A DNA stretch of 15,043 bases, from positions 1 through 15,043 of the forward strand of contig NZ_QEFP02000013.1 of NCBI RefSeq assembly GCF_003086415.1, in the 5' to 3' direction. Shown here piece by piece: positions 425-14,973 of the stretch. A program made the translations under genes and the position numbers. Each line of letters starts with the position of its first letter. Position 1 is the first letter of the stretch. The notes under the pieces were generated by a model. That model was not told where the DNA came from. It worked only from the letters and a program-made list of their open reading frames with translations, and did not search any database. Source of the stretch: Candidatus Nanobsidianus stetteri (GTDB lineage Archaea > Nanobdellota > Nanobdellia > Nanobdellales > Nanobdellaceae).

Positions 425-426
425 AG

Positions 427-771: not shown

Positions 772-1429
772 ATTTACTGGAACTGAAGGTTTAATATTTT
801 TTGATAAAATTTTGGTTATTTCTGATCTACATATTGGTATAGAAAGGGAATTATATAAAAAGGGGATAAATATTCCTTCCCAAGTAAATTACTATATAAA
901 TAAAATAAAGAAAATTCATGAAAAATATAAAATAGAGTATTTAATAATTGATGGAGATTTAAAACATAATATACCTGAAACAACTTTACAAGAAATGTCG
1001 GATATTCCTTATTTTATAAATGAAATTTCTCAATATTTCAAGAAAATATATATAATAAAGGGGAATCATGATGGAGATATTGAAGAATTAATTAATGGAA
1101 TAAATAATGTTAAAATTTTGAAGGCATTAAAAATAAAAAATGTTGTATTTACTCACGGAAATTTAAATACAAAATTGAAAGGAAAATATTATGTTATTGG
1201 GCACCATCATTTTGCAAAAAGTATTTCTACAAGTATTGGAGAAAGCATATATGAAAAAGTTTTTGTAATTGGATATAAAGATAATAAAGTAATTATAATT
1301 TTACCTGCATTTTCTGATTTAGCTGGATTATGGGATGTTGGGGAATTTCAAGGTCCAATTGCAAAGGGAATAAAAAAATATGAAGTATATACTTTAGACG
1401 GAATTTTAATTGAAGAAAAGGAAATATAA
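764..1429 (+). CDS. Binuclear metallophosphoesterase (calcineurin-like, MPE/SbcD-related small archaeal type)
   Basis: Ordered metallophosphoesterase motifs are present: 'ISDLHIG' (DxH), 'IIDGDLKH' (GDxxH), 'IKGNHD' (GNHD), 'FTHGN' and 'IGHHH' (GHxH). Confidence 0.8.
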   Translation: MLKFTGTEGLIFFDKILVISDLHIGIERELYKKGINIPSQVNYYINKIKKIHEKYKIEYLIIDGDLKHNIPETTLQEMSDIPYFINEISQYFKKIYIIKGNHDGDIEELINGINNVKILKALKIKNVVFTHGNLNTKLKGKYYVIGHHHFAKSISTSIGESIYEKVFVIGYKDNKVIIILPAFSDLAGLWDVGEFQGPIAKGIKKYEVYTLDGILIEEKEI

Positions 1430-1563
1430 AAATTTTAATATTGTACAATATGTCAATTTTATTTATTAAATTAATTTATTTTTTGAGATTTTTTTAATTT
1501 ATATAATTAATTGAAATTTTAATATTTTTTAAAAGAATTTTTCAATATTTTTATAATGCTATA

Positions 1564-1571
1564 TTTATAAA
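1564..1571 (+). promoter_or_regulatory. TATA box (TTTATAAA) upstream of the helicase gene
   Basis: The octamer TTTATAAA is centred about 31 nt upstream of the ATG at 1599, in a 169-bp intergenic spacer. The same octamer recurs at about -27 of four other transcription-unit starts in this window. Confidence 0.4.
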
Positions 1572-1598
1572 AAATTTTTAGAAAAATATAAATTATCT

Positions 1599-2750
1599 AT
1601 GACATATAAACTTAATAAAAAAGTAGAAGAATTGTTCTTTGAAAGATTCAAAGATTTTACTCCAATTCAAAAAATAGCAATTCCAGAAATATTAAGTGGA
1701 AATAATACTTTAATTGTTGCACCTACAGGATCTGGAAAAACAGAGGCTGCAATATTACCAGTATTTTCAAAAATATTGGAATTAAAGGAAAAAGGGATTG
1801 AAAATCAATTGTTGGGAATTTATATATCACCATTGAGAGCATTGAATAGGGATTTATTGGATAGAATAAAATGGTGGTGTGATAATTTAGGAATAACTGT
1901 TGCAGTAAGACATGGGGATACTGAAGAAAAGGAAAGGGCAAGATTATCTAAAAAACCTGTAGAATTTTTAATAACAACGCCAGAAACTTTCCAAATATTA
2001 TTTTTAGGAAAAAGATTAAGAGAACAATTAAAAACAATAAAATATGTTATTGTAGATGAATTACATGAATTATTAAATGAAAAGAGAGGAATACAACTAT
2101 CTTTAGGTTTAGAAAGATTGGTAAATTATGCTGGAGAATTTCAGAGAATTGCATTATCTGCAACAATTGGAGATTTGGATGAAGCTGCAAAATTTATTTT
2201 TGGATATAGGAATTATAAAATTGCATATTGGTATGCGGAGAAAAAATACCATATAGAAGTATATTATCCAGAAATTAGTGAAGAAGATTTGGAATTGGCA
2301 AAGAAATATAATTGGAATCCAAAAATAGCATGGAGTTTAAGGAAAATAAAGGAAATATTGGATAAACATAGATCTGTAATAATATTTGTAAATACAAGAG
2401 AAATGGCAGAATTATTATCTTCAAGATTTAAGGTTTGGTTACCAGAATATAAGATTGAAATACATCATAGTTCTTTATCAAGGGAGGTAAGGGAAAGAAA
2501 TGAAAAATTATTTAAGGAAGGGAAAATTAAGGCAATTATTGCAACATCTTCTTTAGAACTTGGTATAGATATTGGATATGTAGATGCTGTTATTCAATAT
2601 AATTCACCCAGACAGGTTACAAGGTTAATACAAAGGATCGGAAGAGCAGGTCATAAATTGCATGAAGTATCTATTGGATATATAATTACAACAGATATAG
2701 ACGATTATGCAGAAAGTTTGGCAATTAAAAAATTTACATTGGAAAAATAA
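1599..2750 (+). CDS. Lhr-like superfamily 2 DExH helicase, RecA1+RecA2 core only (383 aa)
   Basis: Motifs seen: motif I 'APTGSGKTEAA' preceded by 'FTPIQKIAIPEILSGNNTLIV', motif II 'VDELHEL', motif III 'SATIG', motif V 'ATSSLELGIDIG', motif VI 'QRIGRAGH'. The ORF ends about 30 aa after motif VI, so the winged-helix and domain-4 parts typical of Lhr proteins are absent. Confidence 0.85.
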   Translation: MTYKLNKKVEELFFERFKDFTPIQKIAIPEILSGNNTLIVAPTGSGKTEAAILPVFSKILELKEKGIENQLLGIYISPLRALNRDLLDRIKWWCDNLGITVAVRHGDTEEKERARLSKKPVEFLITTPETFQILFLGKRLREQLKTIKYVIVDELHELLNEKRGIQLSLGLERLVNYAGEFQRIALSATIGDLDEAAKFIFGYRNYKIAYWYAEKKYHIEVYYPEISEEDLELAKKYNWNPKIAWSLRKIKEILDKHRSVIIFVNTREMAELLSSRFKVWLPEYKIEIHHSSLSREVRERNEKLFKEGKIKAIIATSSLELGIDIGYVDAVIQYNSPRQVTRLIQRIGRAGHKLHEVSIGYIITTDIDDYAESLAIKKFTLEK

Positions 2751-2751
2751 A

Positions 2752-4047
2752 TTAATGAAGAAGCTTTTCTAAAAATTGTATCCTTCTATTAACTAAATTT
2801 TTTAATTCTCTTATATAATTTTTTGATTTATTTAATGCAGAGAATATACCTATTTCATATTTCCTATTATCAGGATCATTGAAAATGTGTCTAAGTCTCA
2901 ATTCAATATTTCTTTTAAATGCATCTTCAAATTCATCAAACCTCATCAATAATGTTTCTACTTTTCTATATTCATTTATTGTATCTTGTATATCTTTAAA
3001 TATTTGACTATATGGACCTCCTTGTGAATGAAAAATAAATATATAGCTATAATGCAGTAGATTTTCTAGTTTTGATTTATGACTAGCAAGATATTTAAGA
3101 TTATCAATTATTTTTTGTATCTCCTCATAAAGATCTTTTGTTGATTTTTCAGTATCTAATATCTCTGATTTATGCATACGACCTCTTATTTTTATTAAAG
3201 TGTTAATAAAATTGTCTTTTTCCTTTATTTGCTCGGGTGAAAGAAGATTCTGATTTTGAAGCTGGTTAAAGTATATCTCACATCTATTTATAAAATTATT
3301 AATAAATGCTCTGTATGCATTTTCTAATTCAGATAAAGTAGTTTCGAATTTTGCATTTGCATTGCTAAGTTGATTGTTTATATTTTCTATATCATTATCA
3401 ATTTTTTCTCTTCCTTCTTCCAGATATTTTATATCTTGTTCAGAAAGATCTTTTCTTGCTTTCTTTAATTCCCCTTCTACTTTTAATAACTCTTTTTCTA
3501 CATTAGCTACAAAGGATTTAGCTGCATAATGGAAGCTTTTTCCATAAGAAATTGTAGCTCTTCCAAAGAAAAATAAAGCTATTAATACAAGTATTAATAA
3601 AATAAATCCGTAAAGATTAAGTAAAAATGGTATAGCATAACCTATTGCTATTGCAGAAAATGCGCTTAGAGCAAATACAAATAATATTTTTGATTTTCTC
3701 ATTGTTTCACTTTCAGTTATTTTAGCTCTTTGTATAAATATTTCAAAAAGATATGTATATATTGCAATAAAGAATAAAGTAGTTATTAAAAATATTACAA
3801 TAGTCCAAACATAAGATGGTACTCCATTAATAGATAAAAAATTAGCTAAATATTGACCCGCGGTTGAATAACCATTAAACGAAGAGTTAATAAGCTCTTG
3901 GATAATCAAGTTCGATTCTAAACTACTTACTTCATTATTTTGTCCAGATGTTGTTTGTGAATACACTGAATAAATAAACCCTATTAAGAATAGGATAGTA
4001 AATATGGGTATTCGTAGCTTCTTATTAATATTTTTTGTACCTTCCAT
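2752..4047 (-). CDS. Membrane protein: signal peptide, short ectodomain, 3 TM helices, helical/coiled-coil cytoplasmic domain of about 250 aa (431 aa)
   Basis: N-terminus 'KKLRIPIFTILFLIGFIYSVYSQT' is signal-like. Three hydrophobic stretches follow ('VWTIVIFLITTLFFIAIYTYLF', 'ILFVFALSAFSAIAIGYAIPFLL', 'GFILLILVLIALFFF'), then a long heptad-like Lys/Glu/Asn/Leu-rich region. A TTTATAAA box lies 27 nt upstream. No family recognised. Confidence 0.6.
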   Translation of the reverse strand: MEGTKNINKKLRIPIFTILFLIGFIYSVYSQTTSGQNNEVSSLESNLIIQELINSSFNGYSTAGQYLANFLSINGVPSYVWTIVIFLITTLFFIAIYTYLFEIFIQRAKITESETMRKSKILFVFALSAFSAIAIGYAIPFLLNLYGFILLILVLIALFFFGRATISYGKSFHYAAKSFVANVEKELLKVEGELKKARKDLSEQDIKYLEEGREKIDNDIENINNQLSNANAKFETTLSELENAYRAFINNFINRCEIYFNQLQNQNLLSPEQIKEKDNFINTLIKIRGRMHKSEILDTEKSTKDLYEEIQKIIDNLKYLASHKSKLENLLHYSYIFIFHSQGGPYSQIFKDIQDTINEYRKVETLLMRFDEFEDAFKRNIELRLRHIFNDPDNRKYEIGIFSALNKSKNYIRELKNLVNRRIQFLEKLLH

Positions 4048-4070
4048 TTTGTTATATAAATTTGTTGAAA

Positions 4071-4078
4071 TTTATAAA
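4071..4078 (-). promoter_or_regulatory. TATA box (TTTATAAA) for the 431-aa membrane protein gene
   Basis: The palindromic octamer is centred 27.5 nt upstream of the ATG at 4047 on the minus strand. Confidence 0.45.
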
Positions 4079-4168
4079 TTATTTCCTTACAACTATAACA
4101 AAAAAGGAATAAACATAGAAAAAATTAAATAAAAATATTAAATAAATAAAAAAAGTTATAATGTAGTG

Positions 4169-4271
4169 GCTTTATATGTATTCGGGATTTTTTCTTCATA
4201 ACTTCTTTTATTTCTAAAACATTTTCTAATGCTAAATTTAAGGTAATATTTAATTCTTTACTTGAAATTTC
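4169..4271 (-). pseudogene. Decayed duplicate of the 3' end of rrp41
   Basis: 4210-4271 aligns without gaps to 5945-6006 (54 of 62 identical by hand alignment), including the exact 20-mer ttttctaatgctaaatttaa. Weaker gapped similarity extends to about 4169 versus 5913. Same orientation as rrp41, with no open frame. Confidence 0.6.
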
Positions 4272-4282
4272 GTATTTTTATA

Positions 4283-4400
4283 GTTTAGAAAGAATGGTAA
4301 ATTATGTTGCGGAATTTTAAAGGAAAGAATTTTTCTTTAATATCTAAGAATGAAAAATTAAAATGAATTTTGTAAAATTTATTTAAATTTTTTGGATTAG
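4283..4400 (+). pseudogene. Decayed duplicate of an internal segment of the helicase gene
   Basis: 4283-4318 aligns to 2107-2142 (31 of 36 identical: gtttagaaaga.tggtaaattatg..g..gaattt). A second patch matches, (t)aaaatttattt..ttttggat.a at about 4371-4400 versus 2186-2212. The segment between is more degraded. Same orientation as the helicase. Confidence 0.5.
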
Positions 4401-4563
4401 ATGTAAGATGGGGAAAGGCATCTTATCAATAGATCTTTCTAAAGATTTGAGCTTTTTAAATGTAATTTTATCATTTTAATTTCTTTTGATAATTTTAAAG
4501 TTCTATAATTAGATTTGTAAATAGTTCGATAAGAATATAACACTTTATGCAAATTATAGTTAA

Positions 4564-5832
4564 TTAACGTATTCTAAAAATTTTTAAAATACTTATAGAT
4601 AATCTAAGTATTCTAGCGGTCAGGAATAATAATCTTTTTGGATTTCCCCTAAATCTACGTAAATAAAGTAAAAGTTTAGATAATTTTTTTATAGATCTAC
4701 GAGTTTTAGATAATATTTCCATTCTTTTTAATGGAGATATCCTTGGATTTTTAGAAATAGCAGCGGTGGAGTTTCGCATTATTTGTATTTCTTTTATTAG
4801 AGCTCTTTTATTATTATTATTTATAGGTAAAAGAGAAACAGTATTAGTATCTATATTTAAAGTGTTATTTATTTCATTTGCATATTTCCTACTAATAGTT
4901 TCTGCAGAAATTAACAATCTATTTAAATCTGCGAATATTTTCTGACCTTCTTTGTATGTAGTATTTAATCTCGTAATCAAGTCGTTTAGTATTTTTCTTA
5001 ATACTATCAAATACTTTGGTGTAAATTTATTTGTTCTAAATATTCTATTTCCAAATCTTCTTAATAAAGAAATATTGCTAAACATAGTACTTATTATTCT
5101 ACTTAACTGTTTGGTTTTATATATAGCATTATTATATATTATATTGAATTTTGATGAATAAGCTACTAACATATGTTGAGTTAATCTTTCATTTTCGGTT
5201 TCTTTTAATAGTTGGAATATTATATTATTTAGAGTTTCTATATCTTTTTCTATAGAATTTAGTAAGTTTCTTATGTAAGGATGATTTAATATTCTATTTA
5301 GTTTATATATATCTTTTAAAATTTTATTTTCATTATTAAAAAAATTTCTAATATCTGATGTTGTTCTTGAAAAAATACTTCCTAATCCAGGATTAATCTT
5401 ACTTAAGCTTTCTTTAAGACTTTCTAATTTAGATTTACCAATTCTAAATACTTTTATTATAAATGCAGTAATTAATATAGGCATAACAAAAGGCCAAAAG
5501 AGGTATGTAAGTATTAAAGATATCAATGCTGAGATTAGCAATTTTTGGGATTCGGGAGCTAAACTATTAAAAATATTTAAGAATCTTCTAAATATAAAAA
5601 ATAAAGCAAAAAAGGAGATTATATATGGTAAATTTTCTAAAATAATTGGTGCCAAAGGACCTAAATATTGAGAAAGAATATTAGCAGATGATTCTAATAA
5701 TTGTTTATCTAAATATAATGTACCTATAGATTCATTATACCATGTATAAATATAATTATTTGATTGTGAATAAATATTAGTAAAGTTTAGGATAAAAGTT
5801 AAGATCATCAGATATTTATAATTTCTTCCCAT
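4564..5832 (-). CDS. Membrane protein: signal peptide, short ectodomain, 3 TM helices, long helical and very basic cytoplasmic domain (422 aa)
   Basis: Signal-like 'YLMILTFILNFTNIYSQS'. Hydrophobic stretches 'PYIISFFALFFIF', 'LLISALISLILTYLFWPFVMPILITAFIIKVF'. About 280 aa of helical Asn/Ile/Leu/Arg/Lys-rich sequence ending in an Arg/Lys-rich tail. Same architecture as the 431-aa protein, with a shared ectodomain 'QYL' motif. Own TTTATAAA box 27 nt upstream. Confidence 0.6.
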   Translation of the reverse strand: MGRNYKYLMILTFILNFTNIYSQSNNYIYTWYNESIGTLYLDKQLLESSANILSQYLGPLAPIILENLPYIISFFALFFIFRRFLNIFNSLAPESQKLLISALISLILTYLFWPFVMPILITAFIIKVFRIGKSKLESLKESLSKINPGLGSIFSRTTSDIRNFFNNENKILKDIYKLNRILNHPYIRNLLNSIEKDIETLNNIIFQLLKETENERLTQHMLVAYSSKFNIIYNNAIYKTKQLSRIISTMFSNISLLRRFGNRIFRTNKFTPKYLIVLRKILNDLITRLNTTYKEGQKIFADLNRLLISAETISRKYANEINNTLNIDTNTVSLLPINNNNKRALIKEIQIMRNSTAAISKNPRISPLKRMEILSKTRRSIKKLSKLLLYLRRFRGNPKRLLFLTARILRLSISILKIFRIR

Positions 5833-5855
5833 AATGATCTAAAAATATTTTATAC

Positions 5856-5863
5856 TTTATAAA
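5856..5863 (-). promoter_or_regulatory. TATA box (TTTATAAA) for the 422-aa membrane protein gene
   Basis: The octamer is centred 27.5 nt upstream of the ATG at 5832, inside the 48-nt spacer downstream of rrp41. Confidence 0.45.
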
Positions 5864-5872
5864 AGTTGTTAT

Positions 5873-5878
5873 AAAAAA
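5873..5878 (-). terminator. Oligo-T tract (T6 on the minus strand) just after the rrp41 stop
   Basis: A6 on the plus strand, equal to T6 on the coding strand, starts 3 nt after the rrp41 stop codon (5881-5883). Archaeal RNA polymerase is known to terminate at oligo-T tracts. Confidence 0.35.
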
Positions 5879-5880
5879 TA

Positions 5881-6639
5881 CTAATAAATAAAATTACCTG
5901 ATGAAGATAAATGCTTTAATATATTACTTTTCATTAAATTCTTTATTTCTAAAGCTTTTTCTAATGCTAAATTTAAAGCATCATTTAATTCTCTATTTGA
6001 AATTTCTCCATCCAATTGTATTAAAGTAAATTTTTTCTCCGAAGGAATTATTGCAACAGGTATATCTGTAGCTCTTCCTTCTCCATAATATTCTATATAT
6101 TTTGATTTTTCAGGATCTTTCCTTAATTTTTCTGAATCATAATCTTCTTCTTCTTTGTTTAAATCTACAACAATTTTTTCTCCAACCTTTCCAACTGCCA
6201 AACCTATTACTAAATCTTTCATTGGAATACCTGCTAAAGATAATGCCAAAGATGCAGCATTTATACTTGCAGTCCTTGTTCCAGCATCTGCATTTAATAT
6301 TTCAATATATATATCTATAATACTTCCAGGAATTTCTTCTAATAATAATGCGGGCTCTAATGCTCTTTTAATTACTTCAGATAATTCAATTTCTCTTCTA
6401 CCTGGTGTAGGTTTTTTCCTTTCAGGTGTAGAAAATGTTAGCATATTATATCTAACCCTTAAGAATGCTTTTTCATAATCTAAAGACATTTTTGAAGGTT
6501 TTGGCCCATATACAGCAGCTAATGCAACAGTATCACCAAAAGAAAATATTGCAGATCCTTTTGCATTATCTATTACATTTAACTTTATATTTATTTTTCT
6601 TAATTCATTATATTCTCTACCATCAAATCTTTTTACCAT
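5881..6639 (-). CDS. rrp41: Exosome complex exonuclease Rrp41 (RNase PH domain)
   Basis: 'RFDGREYNELRKI', 'GSAIFSFGDTVALAAVYGP', 'PGRREIELSEVIKRALEPALLLE' and the RNase PH signature 'LNADAGTRTASINAASLAL'. It sits immediately downstream of rrp4, the conserved archaeal order. It contains an apparent insertion of about 18 aa, 'KLRKDPEKSKYIEYYGEG'. Confidence 0.9.
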   Translation of the reverse strand: MVKRFDGREYNELRKINIKLNVIDNAKGSAIFSFGDTVALAAVYGPKPSKMSLDYEKAFLRVRYNMLTFSTPERKKPTPGRREIELSEVIKRALEPALLLEEIPGSIIDIYIEILNADAGTRTASINAASLALSLAGIPMKDLVIGLAVGKVGEKIVVDLNKEEEDYDSEKLRKDPEKSKYIEYYGEGRATDIPVAIIPSEKKFTLIQLDGEISNRELNDALNLALEKALEIKNLMKSNILKHLSSSGNFIY

Positions 6640-6641
6640 TT

Positions 6642-7241
6642 TTATTTATTTTCCAAAATTTCTTTAACCTTTTCAGTTAAACCCCTTTTATATGAATTAT
6701 TTATAATGAATCTAATAATATCTACTGCCTTTGATACTTCATTTATATCACCATTTAAATATATTCTACCATTTTTTCCAATTATTATGTCAATTTTTAA
6801 ATATTGTTTAATTAAATTTAGCATTGAAGAATTTTTTCCAATTACTCTTGGAATTCTTGCAGGATCTACCTTTAATATTAACCCATCATTTAATTTTTCC
6901 TTTTTCTTAATATCCAAATCTATTAATTTATTCTTTGTCATTCTTACAATTTGACATAATATATAATCCCCATAAGTATATATATCATTTGGATCCATTC
7001 CAATATCTTTTAAAGATAACTTTCCTATATATGGGGAATTTATATCAACTAACCATCCATTAGATAATACATCAATTACTTTTCCAATTACAATATCATT
7101 TACTTCTGGCATGTAATATCCAAAAAGCCTTGTAGTTTTATCCTCATTTACTAATAATATATATTTTGAATAATAATTATTTTCTCTTTCATATGAATTA
7201 TTATCTTTTTTCTTTAAGTTATCTCCAGGTATTAATATCAT
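6642..7241 (-). CDS. rrp4: Exosome RNA-binding subunit Rrp4 (N-terminal, S1 and KH domains)
   Basis: 'ILIPGDNL' N-terminal motif. S1-like 'YMPEVNDIVIGKVIDVLSNGWLVDINSPYIGKLSL'. KH-like 'PARIPRVIGKNSSMLNLIKQYLKIDIIIGKNGRIYLNG'. A 2-nt gap separates it from the rrp41 start. Confidence 0.85.
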   Translation of the reverse strand: MILIPGDNLKKKDNNSYERENNYYSKYILLVNEDKTTRLFGYYMPEVNDIVIGKVIDVLSNGWLVDINSPYIGKLSLKDIGMDPNDIYTYGDYILCQIVRMTKNKLIDLDIKKKEKLNDGLILKVDPARIPRVIGKNSSMLNLIKQYLKIDIIIGKNGRIYLNGDINEVSKAVDIIRFIINNSYKRGLTEKVKEILENK

Positions 7242-7242
7242 C

Positions 7243-8349
7243 TTATAGATAATATATTATATCATTTTTAAACATGCTCTCAAGCATATACTTCTCCTCA
7301 TTTTTGTGTTTTATTTTTTCTGCTTCATTTTCTAATATAGAAAATACATCTTTTATTGTTGAATATAGATCATATCCATGATCATCAATTGAAAATTTAC
7401 CATTATTATATATTAATTTTGCTCTAATTTGGTAATATATTTTTTTATTTGCTTTATCTTCATTTACCTTTTTAATATGTATTAATAATCTTATATTTTC
7501 TCCTAAAACATTTCTATATTTTTTATAAAATCTCTCATACATTTTCTTTATATAACTTATATCAATTTCATCTAAAGGTATTCCATGAACAACTAAATTA
7601 TACTCTTTTTCCTTTTTATATTGTAAATAATTTATTAATATATCTTTAGCAGTTATTATTCCAACCAAATTTCCATTATCCAATATTGGTAATGAAAATA
7701 CCTTATTTTCTATCATTAAATTAATTATTTTCTCTATATCATCATCTTTATTTGCAAATATTAATTTATTGCTCATTATAGATTTTATTTTTATATCAAA
7801 ATCTTTCTCATTTGGTGTTCTTATATTATTACTATTATCAATTAACATATATTTTAGAATATCTGTTAATGAAATTATTCCAGATACTTTATTATTTTTA
7901 TCTAATACTATTAATCTTGATATACCCTTATCTTTCATTATACCAATTGCTTTTTTAATATTTTCATCTTCATATATTGTATAAGCTTCATTTATTATTT
8001 CATTTAGATTCATTTTTCTCAATATTTCTTTATCATTCAGTATTTCCTTTAATACATCATATATATTAACCACCTTTATTTGTCCATCTTCTCTTACAAA
8101 AGTTACTCTAGAATTAGAATTAATTAATTTCTCTACAATATCTATTATATTATCAGTTTTTAATGGTTTTATTTTATTTACTATTTTTTCAATTTTTGTA
8201 TCTGGCCTATATAAATATCTAATTGCTTTAGAATTTTCTAAAACTCCAATAGGTTTTCCATTATTATCTGTTACAATTATATCTTCTCCCTTTTTTATAT
8301 ATTCAACAATATCTCCAATTTTTTTATCTTTAGATATAAATACTGCCAT
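7243..8349 (-). CDS. Four CBS domains (two Bateman modules) fused to a C-terminal HPF/RaiA-like (ribosomal S30AE-fold) domain (368 aa)
   Basis: Four CBS repeats, for example 'GISRLIVLDKNNKVSGIISLTDILKYM' and 'VFSLPILDNGNLVGIITAKDILINYL'. The C-terminal ~115 aa, 'YNLVVHGIPLDEIDISYIKKMYERFYKKYRNVL..IRLLIHIKKV..YYQIRAKLIY.NGKFSIDDHGYDLYSTIKDVFSILENEAEKIKHK', parallels the HPF/YfiA beta-alpha-beta-beta-beta-alpha layout and its 'D-x-Y-A-A-I-D...KHK' end. The CBS call is firm. The HPF call is pattern-based only. Confidence 0.75.
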   Translation of the reverse strand: MAVFISKDKKIGDIVEYIKKGEDIIVTDNNGKPIGVLENSKAIRYLYRPDTKIEKIVNKIKPLKTDNIIDIVEKLINSNSRVTFVREDGQIKVVNIYDVLKEILNDKEILRKMNLNEIINEAYTIYEDENIKKAIGIMKDKGISRLIVLDKNNKVSGIISLTDILKYMLIDNSNNIRTPNEKDFDIKIKSIMSNKLIFANKDDDIEKIINLMIENKVFSLPILDNGNLVGIITAKDILINYLQYKKEKEYNLVVHGIPLDEIDISYIKKMYERFYKKYRNVLGENIRLLIHIKKVNEDKANKKIYYQIRAKLIYNNGKFSIDDHGYDLYSTIKDVFSILENEAEKIKHKNEEKYMLESMFKNDIIYYL

Positions 8350-8386
8350 TAATCTATATAATAAAAAATTTTTAAATGATTATTTT

Positions 8387-9034
8387 CTATCTTTTTGTAT
8401 GTTCTGGTAATTCATATAGAGCTTCTGCAGGTGCTAGGATAAAGTATTTCTTCTTACGTTTCTTCTTTGGATGTTCTTCTTTGTGATATACCCAATATAT
8501 AGCTGCAATTATAAATCCTATTATTATAATGAATGGTAGTAAACCAGTATATATCAATGCAAGGAATATTTCTATTATTATATTTTGAGCAGTTGCTCCA
8601 AATCCGTTAAAATCTGTTGAAGATGCATATAAAAATGCAAATAGAACTGTAAGAGTTATAAATCCAACAATAACATTATGCGAATATTGTTTATATCTTT
8701 GAAATTCCTCATCTTCCTCCTCTTTGTATGGTTCTGATATACCTGCCATTAATGCAATTATCATTAAAATAAAAAATATAACGAGTACTTCAAAGAAAAA
8801 GAATGATATAAAGTTTGATGTAAATATAACATCTGATATATTATATAAATAATAGAATGTTATGACGATAGAAATTATTGCATAAAATTTTTCTTTATTT
8901 GGATTATCCTTTCCAAACAAACCAGTTTTTCTAAGAGATCCATATAATAGTGAAAATACTAATAAAAATGGTGCTACAAATGTAAATACACCATATTCTG
9001 AAAATAAAGTATAAATAAAGGATGATAGATCCAT
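8387..9034 (-). CDS. Multi-pass membrane protein, paralog C of a tandem family (215 aa, poly-Lys tail)
   Basis: N-terminal motif 'FSEYGVFTFVAPFLLVFSLLYGSLRKTGLFG' is shared with the two upstream genes. Several hydrophobic helices, an acidic loop 'YKEEEDEEF', and the tail 'HKEEHPKKKRKKK'. A 1-nt gap separates it from the preceding ORF. Confidence 0.65.
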   Translation of the reverse strand: MDLSSFIYTLFSEYGVFTFVAPFLLVFSLLYGSLRKTGLFGKDNPNKEKFYAIISIVITFYYLYNISDVIFTSNFISFFFFEVLVIFFILMIIALMAGISEPYKEEEDEEFQRYKQYSHNVIVGFITLTVLFAFLYASSTDFNGFGATAQNIIIEIFLALIYTGLLPFIIIIGFIIAAIYWVYHKEEHPKKKRKKKYFILAPAEALYELPEHTKR

Positions 9035-9035
9035 T

Positions 9036-9305
9036 TTATCTAGACCTTAATATTATTGGGCCTCCAGTTCCTTCCTCTTCTTCCTCTTCCTTTTCTCCAC
9101 CACCTACTATCCACATTAATACCATAAATATAAGCACAAACATAATTAATAATGCTAAAATACCCGATTGCATAAGGTAATTAAGTGTAAATAATAATAA
9201 AGATACTATTGGTGATGAAGTAGATCCTGCTATGCTTAAAGAATTTATTGCTAACCATAATATTATTCCTACAATAAGAAATGCAAAAAAAACGCTCTTA
9301 ACCAT
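9036..9305 (-). CDS. C-terminal half of membrane paralog B, as a separate 89-aa frame (poly-Glu tail)
   Basis: ORF 'MVKSVFFAFLIVG...SIAGSTSSPIVS...MWIVGGGEKEEEEEEGTGG' overlaps the upstream ORF by 37 nt. The Ser-rich loop plus final TM plus charged tail mirrors the C-terminal half of paralog A ('YVASAASASSSVLSS...IAYWAIKPSKG'). It is probably joined to 9269-9640 by a -1 shift in the T8 run at 9285-9292. Confidence 0.55.
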   Translation of the reverse strand: MVKSVFFAFLIVGIILWLAINSLSIAGSTSSPIVSLLLFTLNYLMQSGILALLIMFVLIFMVLMWIVGGGEKEEEEEEGTGGPIILRSR

Positions 9306-9640
9306 GAAGGTATCTTTTTATTTGTAATTGCTAATACAATTACTATTAAAGTAAATCCAATTATAGCTATAGTAGCGCTGGGAATAAAAGATAATAACCA
9401 TCTTACTAAATTTTGATTATATATTGATAAAAGGGCAAATCCGAAAGAAAATAATGCATTTAATTTTCTACCTACATCATCATCAGGACTTACTTTTAAT
9501 AAGTTAGATAATTCTAATATCATGAATACCAAAGAAAATATTAATAAAAATGGTAAAACAAAATCTATAAATCCATATTGTGATAACAATTGATTAAAAT
9601 TTGCTGGATTAAAATTTATTTGTGGTATTTGATTTATCAT
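9269..9640 (-). CDS. N-terminal half of membrane paralog B (123 aa as written)
   Basis: Start chosen at the ATG at 9640, which forms an ATGA start/stop overlap with the upstream gene. The longer track ORF to 9691 would overlap paralog A by 55 nt. Carries the family motif 'LSQYGFIDFVLPFLLIFSLVFMIL'. It is about half the length of its two paralogs. Confidence 0.6.
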   Translation of the reverse strand: MINQIPQINFNPANFNQLLSQYGFIDFVLPFLLIFSLVFMILELSNLLKVSPDDDVGRKLNALFSFGFALLSIYNQNLVRWLLSFIPSATIAIIGFTLIVIVLAITNKKIPSWLRAFFLHFLL

Positions 9641-10218
9641 CTTGATTGTGAAGGTCCAGATCCTTGGCCTTTTGAAGGTTTTATAGCCCAATATGCTATT
9701 CCAAACATTATTGCTAGAATTATTATTGTTTCTATAAATGGTTCTAATGAAGAAAGTACTGAAGATGATGCTGATGCTGCTGAAGCAACATAATTAAATA
9801 AACCGAGTGTAAATATTACTATCAATGTAAATATAATTATTGCAAATGTTAATAATATCATTCTTGTTCTATTACCTATTTGTATTTCTCCACTCTTTTC
9901 TTCTCTCTGTAAAAATGGAGAAATTGCCAATATAAGGAAAAATACTGTTAATAAAAATAATACTATATATGGAATTAATGTTCTTAATGATAATACAACA
10001 TTTGCAGATCCAACTATGAAAAATCCTGTAGATGCAGATACAATTGATAATAAACTTCTTGTAACTCTCCCTTTATCACCTTCAGCAAAAGGATCACCCA
10101 ATATTTTATACTTACTTAATATACCATACATCACAGCATAAACTAATAGAAATGGTAATATAACATTGAAGAATCCCAGGTTATTCAATAATGTTATAAA
10201 TGTATCATAAAAGGCCAT
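9637..10218 (-). CDS. Multi-pass membrane protein, paralog A of the tandem family (193 aa, Gly/Ser/Gln tail)
   Basis: 'LNNLGFFNVILPFLLVYAVMYGILSKYKILG' motif, multiple TM helices, Ser/Ala-rich loop, tail 'KPSKGQGSGPSQSR'. No Cys or His residues. Confidence 0.65.
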   Translation of the reverse strand: MAFYDTFITLLNNLGFFNVILPFLLVYAVMYGILSKYKILGDPFAEGDKGRVTRSLLSIVSASTGFFIVGSANVVLSLRTLIPYIVLFLLTVFFLILAISPFLQREEKSGEIQIGNRTRMILLTFAIIIFTLIVIFTLGLFNYVASAASASSSVLSSLEPFIETIIILAIMFGIAYWAIKPSKGQGSGPSQSR

Positions 10219-10244
10219 ATTTAAAAATAATATTTCATAATTTA

Positions 10245-10457
10245 TTAATCTTTATCTAATATTTCCTGATAATATATAGCATTTGTGGGGCATGCATTTG
10301 CAGCAGTTTTTATATCCTCTATATCTTCTTCAGAGGAAATTATATTATTTTTTATTACTATTCTATTATTTTCAATTGAAAAAATATTCTTATTTATTAA
10401 ATAGCATGCAAGACAATTTATACATTTACTATAATCAATATCTACTATATATTTCAT
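10245..10457 (-). CDS. Small mono-cluster [4Fe-4S]/[3Fe-4S]-type ferredoxin (70 aa)
   Basis: 'CINCLAC' near the N-terminus and 'ACPTNAI' near the C-terminus give the CxxCxxC...CP pattern. The start overlaps the upstream ferredoxin stop by 1 nt (TAATG). Confidence 0.75.
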   Translation of the reverse strand: MKYIVDIDYSKCINCLACYLINKNIFSIENNRIVIKNNIISSEEDIEDIKTAANACPTNAIYYQEILDKD

Positions 10458-10666
10458 TAATCATTAATCTCTTCTACTTTAACTGAATGTGTTGGGCATG
10501 CAACTTCAGCATCTTTAGCTTTTTCTATTAGATTTGGATCTTCAATAATTTCAATTTTTGCTTTTGATTTTCCATCAGAATCAAATTCATATATTTCTGG
10601 TGCAATTGCAATACAAGTTCCGCAACCAATGCATGTATCTTTATTAATCCATGTTTTTATTTTCAT
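10457..10666 (-). CDS. Small mono-cluster [4Fe-4S]-type ferredoxin (69 aa)
   Basis: 'CIGCGTCIAIAPEIYEFD' plus 'ACPTHSV' gives CxxCxxC...CP, as in the short ferredoxins of thermophilic archaea and Thermotoga. It is the first gene after a TATA box. Confidence 0.8.
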   Translation of the reverse strand: MKIKTWINKDTCIGCGTCIAIAPEIYEFDSDGKSKAKIEIIEDPNLIEKAKDAEVACPTHSVKVEEIND

Positions 10667-10688
10667 CTAAAATATATCGCCGTTATAT

Positions 10689-10696
10689 TTTATAAA
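10689..10696. promoter_or_regulatory. Single palindromic TATA box (TTTATAAA) centred in a 52-bp divergent intergenic region
   Basis: The octamer centre (10692.5) equals the spacer centre. It lies 26.5 nt from the ferredoxin ATG (10666, minus strand) and 26.5 nt from the nuclease GTG (10719, plus strand). Confidence 0.5.
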
Positions 10697-10718
10697 TATT
10701 TAAAACATTAAATAGAGC

Positions 10719-11549
10719 GTGGAAATAAATGATATTTTTGTTAGAGTAACAGATATAACAGATTATATTTTCTGTCCTAGAAAAGTTTATCTGAAAAGAG
10801 TTTTAGGATATTCTGAAGAAGATACTGAACAAAAAATATTTGGATCAATTGTTCATTCTTTATTTGATAAAATAAATGAGAAGGAACAAGAAATAATATT
10901 TAATATAAAAGAGTTTGTAGAATATGAAAAAATATTAAATTTATATGAAAATTTTTTAACAGAATTATTAGAAGAATCTATAAAGGAATTTGAAGAACAA
11001 ATAAAAAATTTGAATTTAGATAAAAACGATATAAAAATAAGGGCATATAGTTATGTAATAAAGGATATAGAAGATAGAGCAAAAAATGTATATAATTTTA
11101 TGAAAGAAAATGATTTATATGGGATAGAATTATGGGAATTCTTAGAACCAAAAATAAAGACAGAACTTGATGTTACATCTTTAAAATATAATATAGTTGG
11201 AAGGATAGATAGATTGGAAATATATAAAAAAGCATATAATACCTTATGAAATAAAATCTGGATTTTTTAGGAGAGAACATATTACACAATTATATTCATA
11301 TTATTTATTATTAAAGGATGAATTTCCAAATTATGATATAAGGAAAGGTATATTATTATATGCAAGAGATAATCGAAAAATGGAAATAGAATTTAGAAAT
11401 AATAATGAAATAAAGAAAATACTTGATATAAAAGATAAAATAATTGATATGATTGATAAAAAAGAAGATCCTGGAAAGAAATTTTCTGAAAAATGCAAAA
11501 AAAATGCGCATTTTATAATATTTGTTGGAAAAATGGAAATAAAAATTGA
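10719..11549 (+). pseudogene. Cas4/RecB-like PD-(D/E)xK nuclease with a Cys4 cluster (DUF83-type), interrupted by two frameshifts; the intact first ORF is 10719-11249
   Basis: - Frame 0: GTG start, 'ITDYIFCPRKVYLKRVLG', 'GSIVHSLF', 'GRIDRLEIYKK', then a stop at 11247.
- Frame +1 from about 11233: 'HIIPYEIKSGFF..HITQLYSYYLLL..GILLYA', giving the ExK and QxxxY motifs.
- Back in frame 0 from 11505: 'CAFYNICWKNGNKN*'. With the C at 11494 this gives the Cas4 C-x2/3-C-x5-C motif.
- The breaks coincide with A6 (11226-11231) and A8 (11497-11504). Confidence 0.7.
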
Positions 11550-12297
11550 TACTAGAAAAAGTATATATGAAAATATAAATGAAATATATGAGAAAATAAA
11601 AGAATTAAAAAATAAAAAGCAAAAGATAGAGAATTTGATAAAAGAATTGGAAGAAAAATTGAATAATATTGAGGAAAAAATAATTATTGAAAAAAAGAAA
11701 GAAGAGATTAAGAGAAATAAAAAATGGTATGAGAAATTTAGATGGATGTTTACAACAAATAATTTTCTATTAATTGCCGGAAAAGATTCTATTACAAATG
11801 AAATTATTATAAATAAATATTTAGAAAAAAATGATTTAGTATTCCATGCGGATATTATAGGATCCCCCTTTGGTATATTAAAAAATGGAAAAAATGCAAG
11901 TGAAATAGATATATATGAAGCTGCAAAATTTGTTGGATCATATTCTAGGGCATGGAAAAATAAATTATCCTCTATAGATGTATATTATGTATATCCAGAT
12001 CAGGTATCAAAAAAGACACCTTCTGGAATGTATTTAAAAAAAGGATCCTTTATGATATATGGAGAGAAAAATTATATAAAAGTGAATTTAGAAATTGCAT
12101 TGGCTTTTGAAGATTATAATATTATTCCAGGAGTACCTGAAAGTATAAAAGATAAATATAAAAGATATGTTATATTAATTCCAGGAAATAAAAAACCAAT
12201 AGATATTGCAAAACAGTTGGAAAATATTTTTAAAGTTGATTACAATATTATATTAGAATACCTTCCTGGTGATAGTGATATACTATACCTCAAGTAA
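11533..12297 (+). CDS. NFACT-R (DUF814) domain protein with an N-terminal coiled coil; an Rqc2/NEMF/FbpA-family C-terminal module only (254 aa)
   Basis: 'KKWYEKFRWMFTTNNFLLIAGKDSITNEIIINKYLEKNDLVFHADIIGSPFGILKNG' and 'YSRAWKNKLSSIDVYYVYPDQVSKKTPSGMYLKKGSFMIYGE' match the NFACT-R/DUF814 pattern. They are preceded by 'IYEKIKELKNKKQKIENLIKELEEKLNNIEEK'. Start chosen at ATG 11533, because codons 11380-11532 of the track ORF encode the middle of the Cas4-like protein. Confidence 0.75.
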   Translation: MEIKIDTRKSIYENINEIYEKIKELKNKKQKIENLIKELEEKLNNIEEKIIIEKKKEEIKRNKKWYEKFRWMFTTNNFLLIAGKDSITNEIIINKYLEKNDLVFHADIIGSPFGILKNGKNASEIDIYEAAKFVGSYSRAWKNKLSSIDVYYVYPDQVSKKTPSGMYLKKGSFMIYGEKNYIKVNLEIALAFEDYNIIPGVPESIKDKYKRYVILIPGNKKPIDIAKQLENIFKVDYNIILEYLPGDSDILYLK

Positions 12298-12302
12298 TAA
12301 CA

Positions 12303-12310
12303 TTTATAAA
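12303..12310 (+). promoter_or_regulatory. TATA box (TTTATAAA) for the surface-protein gene
   Basis: The octamer is centred 26.5 nt upstream of the ATG at 12333. Confidence 0.5.
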
Positions 12311-12332
12311 CTTTTCCATAATAAGTTAAATT

Positions 12333-14264
12333 ATGGATAACAAAGTAGTAGTAACAATAAGAAGATTGTTTAGTTTTTTAATGGGGGTAGTATTATTAGG
12401 ATTGGGAGTACATTCACAATCAATAATAATAGAACCACAGACACAAACAATATTAGCAAATGCAGCAAATAATTTAACATTTATAGTAAAGTTATATGGA
12501 GTAGAACAGACACCCGAAGAGGCAAATTTGTACTTTAATATATATGCACCAAATGGACAGTTAATATACCAATATTATGAACCAATATCAGTATGTACAG
12601 GATTAAATATATATCAAGTATCAGTAAATCCATTAGAATTAGAAAATTTAGTACAACAATATAGTTCAGCAAGTTCATGTTCATCTTATACATGTTCAGT
12701 ACAACAATATAATAATTTCACAGTACAAGCAAATGTAACATTATTATATCCATCAGGTTTAGAATATGTAACAGCAAGTCAAACATATAATTTAACATTC
12801 GTACCATATAATTTAACATTATCATTAGTACAATTACCAGAAGTAATTTCACAACAACAAGCAGAACAATATGGAATAAGTGTACAATCAGTAGTATATT
12901 TACAAAATGTTGAAACAAGTATACAGTCATCTACATTAACATTAACATTATATGATTCGCAAGGAAATATTGTATATCAAACACAGGAAAATGTAAATCT
13001 ACAACCAGGAGAAAATTTATTAACTGTAAATATACCAAACTATTATTTAGAAAATGTACAAGGAGAAATGTATGTATTAGAACAATTGAATGTTGTACTA
13101 TCTAGTGGGCAAGTATTAACACAACAAGCAGAACAATCATTCTATATATCAAATAATCAAAATGGACAAAATATACAGGTAATTTCAATATCACCAAACT
13201 TTAATGCATTGCAAAATTTAGTAAACTCCATATATAATGTAGAAGTATTGATGGAGAACCCAGGTTATCAAACAGTAAATGCAACAGTTCAAATGTTATT
13301 ATATGACCAATATGGAGATTTAATATATAATTTACAAAGTTCACAAATAATATCTCCAGGTTCTCAGGGAGAAGTAACATTACCATTAGATACAGCATCA
13401 TTACAGCCAGGATATTATACATTGATATTATATGTATATCAAAATGGAGCAGAAGTATATCAATATAAATATACAATAACAGTAAACGCACAAGAAATAC
13501 AACCAGTAGATGTATTAAGTGTATATTCAAATACATTTAATGTAAAACCAGGACAATTTGTAGAATTATATGTAAATTTAGAATCTAACTTACCAATGGA
13601 TATACAGGTACAACCAATAGTAGAATCACAGCAATTAAATATATTCCAACAATTATCAACAGTAACATTATCACCAAATCAAGTAACACAATTACCAGTA
13701 GTAATATATATTCCAGGAAATTTAACAGCAGGATATTATCCAATAGAATTTGTATTCAATTATAACGGAATATCACAAACATATACATATAATTTATATG
13801 TAAATGGAAAAGTAATAGTACCAGAACCAATAAGTGCATCATTGGTTGGATATTTACCATTAAAGTATGGACAAAATTCAACAATATACTTAGTAATAAG
13901 CTCAAATACAACACAGATATATAATTTATTAATACAAGCATATGCTGTTGGAGGAGAAGTATATCCAGAACAACAAGAAGTACAAATAGGAGGTACATAT
14001 ACTGAACAAATACCATTGAATGTAACTGCAGAAAGTGATAATGTAACAGTATATGTAAATATAATAGATCAGCAAACAGGACAATTATTATATTCATTAA
14101 ATGAAACATATTCAGCATCTCAAGCACCTTCAATATCATTGCCATCATCAGCATTAATATTCTGGATATTAGTAATATTAGCAATAATAATAATAGCTGC
14201 AGTATTAATAGAATCAAGAAGGGGAGGTAAAAAGGAAAAGGAAAAGGAAAAAGCTGAAGAATAA
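12333..14264 (+). CDS. Secreted, C-terminally membrane-anchored surface protein with repeated beta-sandwich (CARDB/Ig-like) modules; S-layer or adhesin candidate (643 aa)
   Basis: - Signal-like 'RRLFSFLMGVVLLGLGVHSQS'.
- C-terminal TM 'ALIFWILVILAIIIIAAVLI' followed by 'ESRRGGKKEKEKEKAEE'.
- At least 12 N-x-S/T sequons (NLT, NFT, NVT, NAT, NST, NTT, NET).
- Recurrent module 'v.v.LYD..G.lIY......l.PGe...v.l......pG.Y.l', for example 'LTLYDSQGNIVYQTQENVNLQPGENLL' and 'MLLYDQYGDLIYNLQSSQIISPGSQGEVTLPLDTASLQPGYYTLILYV'.
- Gln/Tyr/Val/Asn/Thr-rich and nearly devoid of charged residues, unlike every cytoplasmic protein in the window. Confidence 0.7.
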   Translation: MDNKVVVTIRRLFSFLMGVVLLGLGVHSQSIIIEPQTQTILANAANNLTFIVKLYGVEQTPEEANLYFNIYAPNGQLIYQYYEPISVCTGLNIYQVSVNPLELENLVQQYSSASSCSSYTCSVQQYNNFTVQANVTLLYPSGLEYVTASQTYNLTFVPYNLTLSLVQLPEVISQQQAEQYGISVQSVVYLQNVETSIQSSTLTLTLYDSQGNIVYQTQENVNLQPGENLLTVNIPNYYLENVQGEMYVLEQLNVVLSSGQVLTQQAEQSFYISNNQNGQNIQVISISPNFNALQNLVNSIYNVEVLMENPGYQTVNATVQMLLYDQYGDLIYNLQSSQIISPGSQGEVTLPLDTASLQPGYYTLILYVYQNGAEVYQYKYTITVNAQEIQPVDVLSVYSNTFNVKPGQFVELYVNLESNLPMDIQVQPIVESQQLNIFQQLSTVTLSPNQVTQLPVVIYIPGNLTAGYYPIEFVFNYNGISQTYTYNLYVNGKVIVPEPISASLVGYLPLKYGQNSTIYLVISSNTTQIYNLLIQAYAVGGEVYPEQQEVQIGGTYTEQIPLNVTAESDNVTVYVNIIDQQTGQLLYSLNETYSASQAPSISLPSSALIFWILVILAIIIIAAVLIESRRGGKKEKEKEKAEE

Positions 14265-14270
14265 TTTTTT
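14265..14270 (+). terminator. Oligo-T tract (T6) immediately after the surface-protein stop codon
   Basis: The TAA at 14262-14264 is followed directly by tttttt. Oligo-T is the known archaeal intrinsic termination signal. Confidence 0.4.
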
Positions 14271-14271
14271 A

Positions 14272-14319
14272 TCTGTTAGCTTTAATTCATCATTTTTCAG
14301 CCTGGGACGGTTTCTTCAT
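14272..14319 (-). ncRNA. Candidate C/D-box sRNA (2'-O-methylation guide)
   Basis: Minus strand reads AUGAAGA (C-like, 14319-14313), a 12-nt spacer aaccgucccagg, CUGA (D', 14300-14297), aaa, AUGAUGA (C', 14293-14287), an 11-nt spacer auuaaagcuaa, then CAGA (D-like, 14275-14272). Box order and spacing fit the archaeal C/D architecture. The C and D boxes each deviate by one base and no terminal stem is present. Confidence 0.3.
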
Positions 14320-14324
14320 TTTGT

Positions 14325-14903: not shown

Positions 14904-14973
14904 TCTAAATAAGCATTCTTTATAATATATTCTGCATAATTTTTTTCTACCTTTATTTCATAATCTTTTATTA

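Follow-up and report, generated by a model that had tools for sequence, protein, structure and literature searches.

A tightly packed group of three genes on the minus strand was found in a 15,043-nucleotide stretch of DNA from Candidatus Nanobsidianus stetteri (assembly GCF_003086415.1, contig NZ_QEFP02000013.1, positions 1 to 15,043), and we refer to this whole stretch as the window. The first gene encodes a 368-residue protein that joins four N-terminal CBS repeats to a C-terminal domain of the HPF/RaiA type, and it is followed immediately by rrp4 and rrp41, which encode subunits of the archaeal exosome. The first gene very probably encodes HibA, also named AHA, a factor for ribosome hibernation in archaea, in the form of its Nanobsidianus/Nanopusillus ortholog. 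The architecture and function of that family were published in 2025-2026, and the window protein is a divergent member of this known and widespread family. Since the family has already been characterized, what is new here is its linkage to the exosome operon; that hibA-rrp4-rrp41 linkage and a shortened, diverged loop at the position that in HibA reaches the peptidyl transferase center (PTC) are two traits specific to this lineage and of modest interest. The gene and the relevant parts of its product are the following, with Pa-HibA standing for the Pyrococcus abyssi protein and A1 for a family alignment described below.

7243..8349, minus strand: hibA-like gene, ATG start, 368 amino acids plus stop, from the open reading frame (ORF) call
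7615..8349, minus strand: N-terminal CBS tetrad, residues 1-245, from Pfam, AF2 and Foldseek
7861..7881, minus strand: CBS3 motif GIISLTD, residues 157-163, a canonical G-h-h-S/T-x-x-D ribose-binding strand, from alignment A1
7798..7839, minus strand: CBS3-CBS4 loop, residues 171-184, DNSNNIRTPNEKDF, counterpart of the Pa-HibA PTC loop 190-207, from residue mapping
7642..7662, minus strand: CBS4 motif GIITAKD, residues 230-236, from alignment A1
7246..7602, minus strand: HPF/RaiA-like domain, residues 250-368, from profile searches against the PDB, Pfam matches of each family member, AF2 and Foldseek

The family has been described under two names. HibA was reported from P. abyssi (PAB0961/Q9UYR4) and Thermococcus barophilus (Madru et al., Nat Commun 2026, PMC13324472; preprint October 2025), and AHA from Haloferax volcanii (HVO_2384) (Souza et al., bioRxiv February 2026, PMC12934967). 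Both proteins have an N-terminal CBS tetrad followed by a C-terminal HPF/RaiA-like domain, and the family was established by cryo-electron microscopy (cryo-EM), genetics and isothermal titration calorimetry in Pyrococcus/Thermococcus (PMC13324472) and Haloferax (PMC12934967), with deletions leading to hibernation phenotypes in both studies. In the P. abyssi and H. volcanii structures, the HPF domain lies within the 30S subunit's mRNA/tRNA channel, as bacterial HPF does, and the four CBS domains make up one intramolecular disk, which takes up tRNA sites on the 50S subunit belonging to that 70S ribosome, binding at the PTC, uL5 or the L1 stalk; CBS3 and CBS4 are joined by a long loop, called the PTC loop in HibA and loop 3 in AHA, that enters the PTC (PMC13324472, PMC12934967). 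The CBS module of HibA binds adenosine mono-, di- and triphosphate (AMP, ADP and ATP) with dissociation constants of 12, 65 and 113 uM, respectively, at a site on the CBS3/CBS4 interface (PMC13324472), and AHA carries two AMP molecules (PMC12934967). Surveys placed members in 47% of 4,026 genomes of archaea, and in 2,723 of 6,968 species across 17 phyla (PMC13324472, PMC12934967), and Nanopusillus acidilobi was among the genomes surveyed in the HibA paper (PMC13324472). Two statements in an earlier note on this DNA need correction on these grounds. The view that HPF/RaiA proteins are generally regarded as non-archaeal is out of date, and the idea that the CBS (Bateman) modules might replace the dimerization domain of long HPFs does not fit a disk that binds the 50S subunit of its own 70S ribosome, 100S dimers being described in neither paper (PMC13324472, PMC12934967).

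The product of the hibA-like gene is an exact match to WP_228615392.1 / MCC5447167.1, a "CBS domain-containing protein" from Candidatus Nanobsidianus stetteri, and near-identical members of its cluster carry the JGI name [quoted passage not shown] The window, with a GC content of 20 to 27%, is 88 to 92% identical at the DNA level to Nanopusillus/Nanobsidianus genomes. In 13 Nanopusillaceae-type genomes, hibA encodes a protein of 367 to 371 residues, with identities reaching as low as 38%.

The N-terminal two-thirds of the protein is a CBS tetrad, as the earlier note had read it. Pfam CBS matches the 368-residue protein with an E value of 5e-30, and an AF2 model of the full protein, computed on A1 (predicted local distance difference test score [pLDDT], 88.3; predicted template modeling score, 0.85), resolves CBS1 (residues 2-47), CBS2 (58-104), CBS3 (120-169) and CBS4 (187-245), each with a beta-alpha-beta-beta-alpha arrangement and a pLDDT of about 90. 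In a Foldseek comparison with the PDB, the full-length model was matched by the CBS tetrads of MJ1225, SriA, Dri and AMPK-gamma over 258 to 296 columns, with E values of about 1e-14; a resemblance of this kind has also been reported for AHA (PMC12934967). These tetrads dominate the list, and no HibA entry appears among the top 50 matches of the full-length model; the structure library covered releases up to 2026-04-08, and the geometry between the domains may also differ from that of HibA. The HibA-ribosome structures are 9SR9-9SRF and 9T7H, according to the data-availability statement (PMC13324472). With the CBS module taken alone, HibA was the third match in the PDB (2e-14), after MJ1225 (2e-19) and 9znf_5, a chain of the Sri complex (2e-16).

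The G-h-h-S/T-x-x-D motif is retained in CBS3 and CBS4 and not in the other two repeats. In A1, G157 of the CBS3 motif is invariant and D163 nearly so, and in the CBS4 motif G230, I231, T233 and D236 are all nearly invariant. This retention matches the position of the AMP/ATP site in HibA and AHA and so counts in favor of the HibA assignment. By analogy, the CBS3/CBS4 pair probably binds AMP, ADP or ATP, and energy sensing by the window protein, which the earlier note had put forward, is plausible.

Taken singly, the window protein matched PF02482 over residues 265-350 with an E value of 0.021 (16.0 bits for the full protein and 17.4 bits for the domain; cut-off, 23.7) and TIGR00741 (yfiA) with an E value of 0.0067 (16.9 bits; cut-off, 40.9). 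Because these single-sequence matches were below threshold, relatives were gathered for profile work, 17 through a word-indexed search and 11 through an exhaustive HMMER scan in which the C-terminal 127 residues served as the query, and arranged in alignments of 20 sequences (A1), of the C-terminal domains of 18 family members (A2) and of 9 sequences (A3). Fourteen of the 18 members match PF02482 singly, the best at 1.3e-10, and relative P0016 carries a precomputed PF02482 match. The superfamily relationship therefore holds, yet the window protein is not a canonical member of PF02482 or TIGR00741. Against all PDB sequences, the A2 profile returned 28 matches, every one of them HibA or HPF/RaiA/YfiA. 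HibA chain 9sr9_H was matched at 5e-15, and two other archaeal chains of about 400 residues were matched at their C-terminal ends: 9l96_a, a CBS-HPF chain deposited as "CBS domain-containing protein" (2e-7), and 9i5v_14, deposited as "RaiA" (3e-3). Bacterial HPF/RaiA/YfiA proteins followed at 1e-6 to 1e-3 overall, with E. coli HPF (4v8h_AX/2rql/6h4n) and the Vibrio and Psychrobacter HPF/RaiA proteins at about 1e-6 over the entire length. The search with PF02482 that the earlier note had called for thus fell short for the single sequence and succeeded for most members of the family.

The HMMER alignment to E. coli HPF pairs LNITG with LVVHG, ITEALREFVTAKFAKLEQYF with DISYIKKMYERFYKKYRNVL, VYVVLKVEK with IRLLIHIKKV, and QDMYAAIDGLIDKLARQLTKHKDK with YDLYSTIKDVFSILENEAEKIKHK, in agreement with the element-by-element pairing that had been drawn by eye in the earlier note; the AF2 elements fall where that note placed them. 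They comprise strands at residues 251-255, 287-298, 303-314 and 317-325, a helix at 264-282 and a long last helix at 328-367, giving a b-a-b-b-b-a topology in both the full-length model and a model of the domain alone. The domain was modeled separately because CBS tetrads dominate the full-length Foldseek result. That model (pLDDT, 88.9) was matched in the PDB by HPF, RaiA, YfiA or PSRP1 at every one of ranks 1 to 31, with template modeling scores (TM) of up to 0.81 and root mean square deviations of 2.7 to 3.3 A, so the structural comparison proposed beforehand came out in favor of an HPF fold.

These results bear on whether the protein might instead be a generic CBS regulator whose C-terminal domain has nothing to do with HPF and is, for example, ACT-like, part of an HhpR-type regulator, or an enzyme. 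Such a reading draws on the low single-sequence PF02482 score, on weak CBS matches to the HhpR, PrdR and CcpN models, and on the source labels of two orthologs: P0009 from Nanobdella aerobiophila (locus L001/L017) is labeled "homoserine O-acetyltransferase" in NCBI and UniRef, and P0006 is labeled "predicted transcriptional regulator" by JGI. The domains found in Pfam and NCBIfam scans back neither label. The HhpR, PrdR and CcpN matches reach 24 to 58 bits against cut-offs of 260 to 795 and cover the CBS repeats only, and no acyltransferase, hydrolase or DNA-binding domain was matched in Pfam at an E value of 1 or below. The topology is b-a-b-b-b-a rather than the ACT-like b-a-b-b-a-b that the earlier note had named as the fold that would speak against HPF, no ACT domain appears among the significant sequence or fold matches, and every significant match of the domain is to HPF/RaiA. 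ACT-like, transcription-regulator and acyltransferase readings were rejected on this predicted topology and on the lack of a supporting domain, and we regard a generic CBS regulator of any such kind as extremely unlikely. The HibA/AHA family name should supersede the labels "CBS domain-containing protein," "homoserine O-acetyltransferase" and "transcriptional regulator."

The assignment to HibA, rather than to HPF proteins in general, rests on the comparison with the solved chain. The window protein matches Pa-HibA 9sr9_H collinearly in one stretch, residues 19-342 against 32-367 of the chain (E value, 1e-18). Over 321 columns the two are 24.3% identical, the CBS module having 24.9% identity and the HPF domain 22.9%. 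Both domains thus align with a single solved HibA chain, and the CBS-HPF fusion that the earlier note had proposed as a candidate energy-sensing hibernation factor matches the HibA/AHA family. The two proteins share the order and size of the modules, a long last helix, an extended b2-b3 hairpin and the CBS3/CBS4 nucleotide motif. Against the family profile, E. coli HPF needs a 9-residue gap at this hairpin and HibA a 1-residue gap, and a hairpin of this length fits the archaeal-specific insertion (b14-b15) that contacts uS12 in HibA, which counts for the HibA identity. A second archaeal-specific insertion of HibA, b13-a11 (the b1-a1 position), binds the uS19 tail (PMC13324472); the corresponding b1-a1 linker in the window protein is 8 residues long (256-263), Pa-HibA has 2 residues more, and E. 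coli HPF aligns without a gap there against the family profile. Some basic contacts to 16S rRNA are retained in kind, with R299, R336 and H358 of HibA corresponding to R273, K311 and K333. The likeness extends to AHA, which has the same architecture, the same AMPK-gamma-like CBS tetrad fold and a terminal helix longer than that of E. coli HPF.

There are also differences from both characterized proteins. The window protein has 368 residues and Pa-HibA 392, and the two are 24% identical; many of the Pa-HibA arginines that contact h44 are replaced; and the window gene lies in an rrp4-rrp41 operon, whereas in Thermococcales the heat-shock repressor Phr is reported to control hibA (PMC13324472). 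The counterpart of the PTC loop has 14 residues instead of 18, 4 fewer than in Pa-HibA, and is modeled with a pLDDT of about 88. Among the Pa-HibA residues that contact A2834 and the PTC (Supplementary Data 1 of the HibA paper, PMC13324472), R190 and K192 are deleted, and Y195, E197, E201 and K202 are replaced by S, N, P and N, respectively. The loop motif R..(K/V)GE, which A1 shows in Pa-HibA and in DPANN members P0011, P0016, P0020-P0022 and P0026, is lost in the Nanopusillus/Nanobdella subclade. In AHA, loop 3 penetrates the PTC and two AMP molecules were observed; in the window protein the loop is degenerate, and what is known of this protein comes from its sequence and its predicted structure.

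It may be, then, that this is a reduced HibA, a plug of the 30S subunit whose CBS tetrad has left the PTC and serves as a steric block, as a binder of the L1 stalk or uL5, or as a nucleotide sensor. The shorter loop, the deleted or replaced PTC contacts and the motif lost from the subclade all speak for this, and the HibA authors themselves describe the CBS module as acting by occupancy of vacant sites and not by specific contacts (PMC13324472). A loop of 14 residues nevertheless remains and is modeled well, and its changes could co-vary with nanoarchaeal 23S rRNA and uL16. We consider a reduced HibA an appreciable yet doubtful possibility, and it is a nuance within the HibA assignment, not a different identity. 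The degenerate loop also offers a natural variant for weighing the three 50S-binding modes of HibA.

Several points weigh against the HibA assignment or against carrying the published function over in full, and we gather them here. The single sequence lies under the curated cut-offs of both PF02482 and TIGR00741. For the CBS module alone, MJ1225 and the Sri-complex chain outscore HibA, and the monophyletic HibA-CM clade, sister to CM-5/SriA, is a candidate placement only. Most of the side-chain contacts of Pa-HibA to 16S rRNA are not kept: R292, R326, R347, R362 and R366 are replaced by Y, A, D, S and N, respectively. The PTC loop is shortened and its contact residues are gone, so that insertion into the PTC may no longer occur here or may take another form. 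As for energy sensing, ribosome binding by HibA in vitro was unchanged by nucleotides, so an effect of nucleotides was not seen even for Pa-HibA (PMC13324472). Finally, function was seen in Pa-HibA and Hv-AHA, and the nanoarchaeal members are represented by sequences and predicted structures alone. Set against the collinear match to the HibA chain, the profile and fold results for the C-terminal domain and the archaeal features of the hairpin and nucleotide motifs, these points leave the HibA identity very probable.

Other known systems resemble this protein in part. The bacterial and plastid HPF/RaiA(YfiA)/PSRP1 proteins (PF02482, TIGR00741) have a homologous 30S-binding domain, matched by the profile at about 1e-6 from end to end and in structure with a TM of up to 0.81. 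The bacterial proteins stand alone or carry the C-terminal long-HPF dimerization domain that makes 100S ribosomes, whereas the window protein has an N-terminal CBS tetrad and a b2-b3 hairpin 9 residues longer than that of E. coli HPF. No Pfam match to the long-HPF dimerization domain was found at an E value of 1 or below, and the protein ends with the long a2 helix. Dri of Pyrobaculum and SriA-D/ARC of Methanosarcina have CBS tetrads of the same fold (matches 9e6q_3, 9znf_4 and 9zni_6); they differ in having no HPF domain, and Dri has two tetrads. In published surveys, these are CBS-only archaeal hibernation factors that bind the tRNA sites of the ribosome, and Dri/Sri/ARC and HibA/AHA are largely mutually exclusive.

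By analogy with Pa-HibA and Hv-AHA, we infer that the window protein binds ribosomes, inhibits translation and binds nucleotides. The C-terminal HPF/RaiA domain (residues 250-368) would bind the small subunit's mRNA/tRNA channel at the decoding center, with its long C-terminal helix pointing to the mRNA exit, and the tethered CBS disk would fill empty tRNA sites on the large subunit within that 70S ribosome. With the 30S channel plugged and the disk seated on the 50S subunit, idle 70S ribosomes would be silenced and kept together, and their rRNA would be protected from nucleases. The CBS3/CBS4 pair would bind adenylates. To judge from the genomic context, co-expression with Rrp4 and Rrp41 may balance the protection of ribosomes against decay by the exosome. 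Nanopusillaceae live as obligate ectosymbionts, and their genomes measure about 0.6 Mb. The HibA/AHA system is kept in these extremely reduced, host-dependent nanoarchaeal genomes, and on that basis its function can be argued to be close to indispensable.

The genomic context that sets this lineage apart consists of the following features.

8350..8386, minus strand: AT-rich 37-nt spacer upstream of hibA, with TTTAAAAA at 8369-8376, 20-27 nt ahead of the ATG, as a possible TATA box
7239..7245, minus strand: hibA/rrp4 junction, TAA at 7245-7243, 1 nt (7242), rrp4 ATG at 7241, read directly
6642..7241, minus strand: rrp4, exosome S1/KH cap subunit, 199 amino acids, NF003181 (2e-46), PF21266 and PF15985
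5881..6639, minus strand: rrp41, exosome RNase PH subunit, 252 amino acids, TIGR02065 (4.7e-76) and PF01138 (5.5e-35)

The hibA stop codon thus lies 1 nt ahead of the rrp4 start within the exosome gene cluster, exactly as the earlier note had it, and the rrp4/rrp41 junction is similarly short (TAA, 2 nt, and the rrp41 ATG at 6639). To survey the arrangement, genomes were scanned with A3, which gave 76 loci, and the Rrp4 and Rrp41 sequences from the window were used as tblastn queries. In all 13 Nanopusillaceae-type loci (Nanopusillus spp., N. acidilobi, Nanobsidianus stetteri Nst1, YN1, Nanobdella aerobiophila, Nanoclepta minutus and metagenome-assembled genomes [MAGs]), hibA is followed directly by rrp4 and rrp41, with spacings of 0 to 2 nt or an overlap, while the identity of hibA ranges from 96% to 38%. 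In the more distant of these relatives, the two genes overlap, with the hibA stop and the rrp4 start sharing the letters TAATG. By contrast, tblastn placed neither Rrp4 nor Rrp41 within 5 kb of any of about 25 loci that encode full-length HibA in Archaeoglobales, Aenigmatarchaeota, Micrarchaeota and Woesearchaeota. In this survey, of the kind that the earlier note had proposed, the fusion was found in other archaea as well and the rrp4 linkage within the Nanopusillaceae type. Other loci of the scan (L038, L041, L046, L049-L058, L067, L071-L073, L078 and L082) are bacterial CBS-pair proteins from Macrococcus, Aerococcus, Sulfurovum, Clostridia and Bacteroidota; they match residues ~40-280 only, mostly CBS3-CBS4 and not the body of the HPF domain, and are generic CBS matches, not HibA homologs. 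A separate search for Rrp4 homologs gave, among the 120 matches listed, only near-identical Nanopusillus variants.

We infer co-transcription of hibA with rrp4-rrp41 from the spacing and its conservation, and the tight packing makes co-expression of the hibernation factor with the RNA exosome core probable in Nanopusillaceae. A TATA-like element stands in an AT-rich spacer 20 to 30 nt ahead of the hibA ATG in all relatives, so hibA is plausibly the first gene of a hibA-rrp4-rrp41 transcript. At most, TTTAAAAA itself may serve as the TATA box of a leaderless transcript: the element shows no enrichment in the window (10 sites, with 14.6 expected), its copy near rrp4 is constrained by the conserved coding sequence MFKND, and its position upstream of hibA and rrp4 is weak evidence. 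Instead of a single transcript, an internal promoter in the 3' end of hibA is possible. A scan of 5700-10800 for sigma-70 promoters and intrinsic terminators gave no terminators and 46 promoter-like sites, where 50.2 were expected, and is uninformative for an archaeon of 22% GC.

A conserved position next to rrp4 could also mean that the protein is primarily an accessory or regulatory subunit of the exosome. RNA substrates or the Rrp4 cap would then be bound by the HPF-like domain, the activity of the complex would be tuned to adenylate levels by the CBS tetrad, and the place in the operon would reflect membership of the exosome and not action on the ribosome. The contiguity of the three genes at all 13 Nanopusillaceae-type loci, across so wide a range of hibA identity, speaks for such a subunit, and there is a parallel in aSBDS. 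In other archaea, SBDS presumably lies immediately upstream of rrp4, for example in AF0491-AF0492. Ribosome-associated aSBDS is encoded there with rrp4-rrp41(-rrp42) in the exosome superoperon (PMC2890523, PMC8024482) and modulates the exosome in vitro (PMC2890523), and idle P. abyssi ribosomes were found to carry it both together with HibA and in its absence (PMC13324472). The likeness is that both are ribosome-associated types of protein encoded with the exosome, the Nanopusillaceae hibA sitting directly upstream of rrp4; the fold and the binding site of aSBDS are unrelated to those of HibA. Against an exosome subunit, two distant homologs of the same architecture were seen on the ribosome by cryo-EM and their deletions have hibernation phenotypes, the rrp4 linkage is absent from the roughly 25 full-length HibA loci of other archaea, and tight packing of unrelated genes is common in small symbiont genomes. 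We therefore consider an exosome subunit improbable.

The preferred reading, a HibA ortholog encoded together with the exosome core, allows a more speculative extension. Nanopusillaceae may have captured hibA as the first gene of the exosome-core operon, so that a protector of ribosomes and a 3'-5' degrader would be made from one transcript in fixed proportion; we think this rather unlikely as it stands. If it were true, the balance of protector and nuclease would be hard-wired in Nanopusillaceae, comparable to the way in which HPF shields bacterial 16S rRNA from RNase R, and the loss of SBDS from the operon, the absence of rrp42 from it and a HibA that no longer probes the PTC may all accompany the capture. 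The HibA paper mentions the exosome once, in its discussion, as the main archaeal 3'-end nuclease and a likely threat that hibernation guards against (PMC13324472), the AHA preprint does not mention it (PMC12934967), and neither paper mentions a hibA-rrp4 linkage (PMC13324472, PMC12934967). A literature search on SBDS or the exosome in Nanoarchaeota/Nanopusillus returned nothing relevant. The conserved operon ties ribosome hibernation to the exosome of archaea by a concrete genetic link that can be tested.

Along the direction of transcription, the gene order is two single-cluster ferredoxin genes, three membrane-protein genes, hibA, rrp4, rrp41 and a 422-residue ORF. The three predicted membrane-protein genes directly upstream of hibA (8387-10218, minus strand; 215, 89/140 and 193 residues) have no family match, and the 215- and 193-residue proteins are kept in place, at 36 to 93% identity, in nearly all Nanopusillaceae-type loci that are long enough. 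The tandem single-cluster ferredoxin genes further upstream number two here (10245-10666) and three in Nanobdella and YN1. Downstream, rrp42 was not seen directly after rrp41 at the locus, either in the window or in the related loci L007-L019. The 422-residue ORF occupies that place (4564-5832, minus strand); it carries a hydrophobic segment near its N terminus, Pfam gave no match to it above threshold, and it evolves fast, being 63 to 83% identical among close relatives and undetectable in distant ones. Beyond it, an ORF-free gap (4048-4563) holds a relic of the 3' end of rrp41 and its downstream spacer (4123-4271, minus strand). The relic comprises 42 codons that are 52% identical to Rrp41 residues 212-252 (E value, 5e-6), and at the DNA level 4195-4271 repeats 5930-6006 (83%) and 4123-4162 repeats 5833-5872 (73%). 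It has the look of a remnant that a segmental duplication left ahead of the next gene.

No tRNA genes or Rfam matches were found in the window. Elsewhere on the contig are genes for ribosomal protein L35Ae (427-771, plus strand), a metallophosphoesterase (764-1429), a DEAD-box helicase (1599-2750) and an NFACT-R RNA-binding protein of the RqcH/Rqc2-like type involved in ribosome quality control (11380-12297, plus strand). A gene for a Cas4/Dna2-like PD-(D/E)XK nuclease (10719-11546, plus strand) carries two frameshifts, from frame 3 to frame 1 near 11227 and back to frame 3 near 11500; its orthologs in Nanobdella and YN1 are intact, with 270 to 275 residues, and the broken copy is either a pseudogene or a MAG assembly error. 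As a consequence of these frameshifts, the ORF at 11380..12297 begins with the C terminus of the Cas4-like protein, and the true start of the NFACT-R gene lies near 11533.

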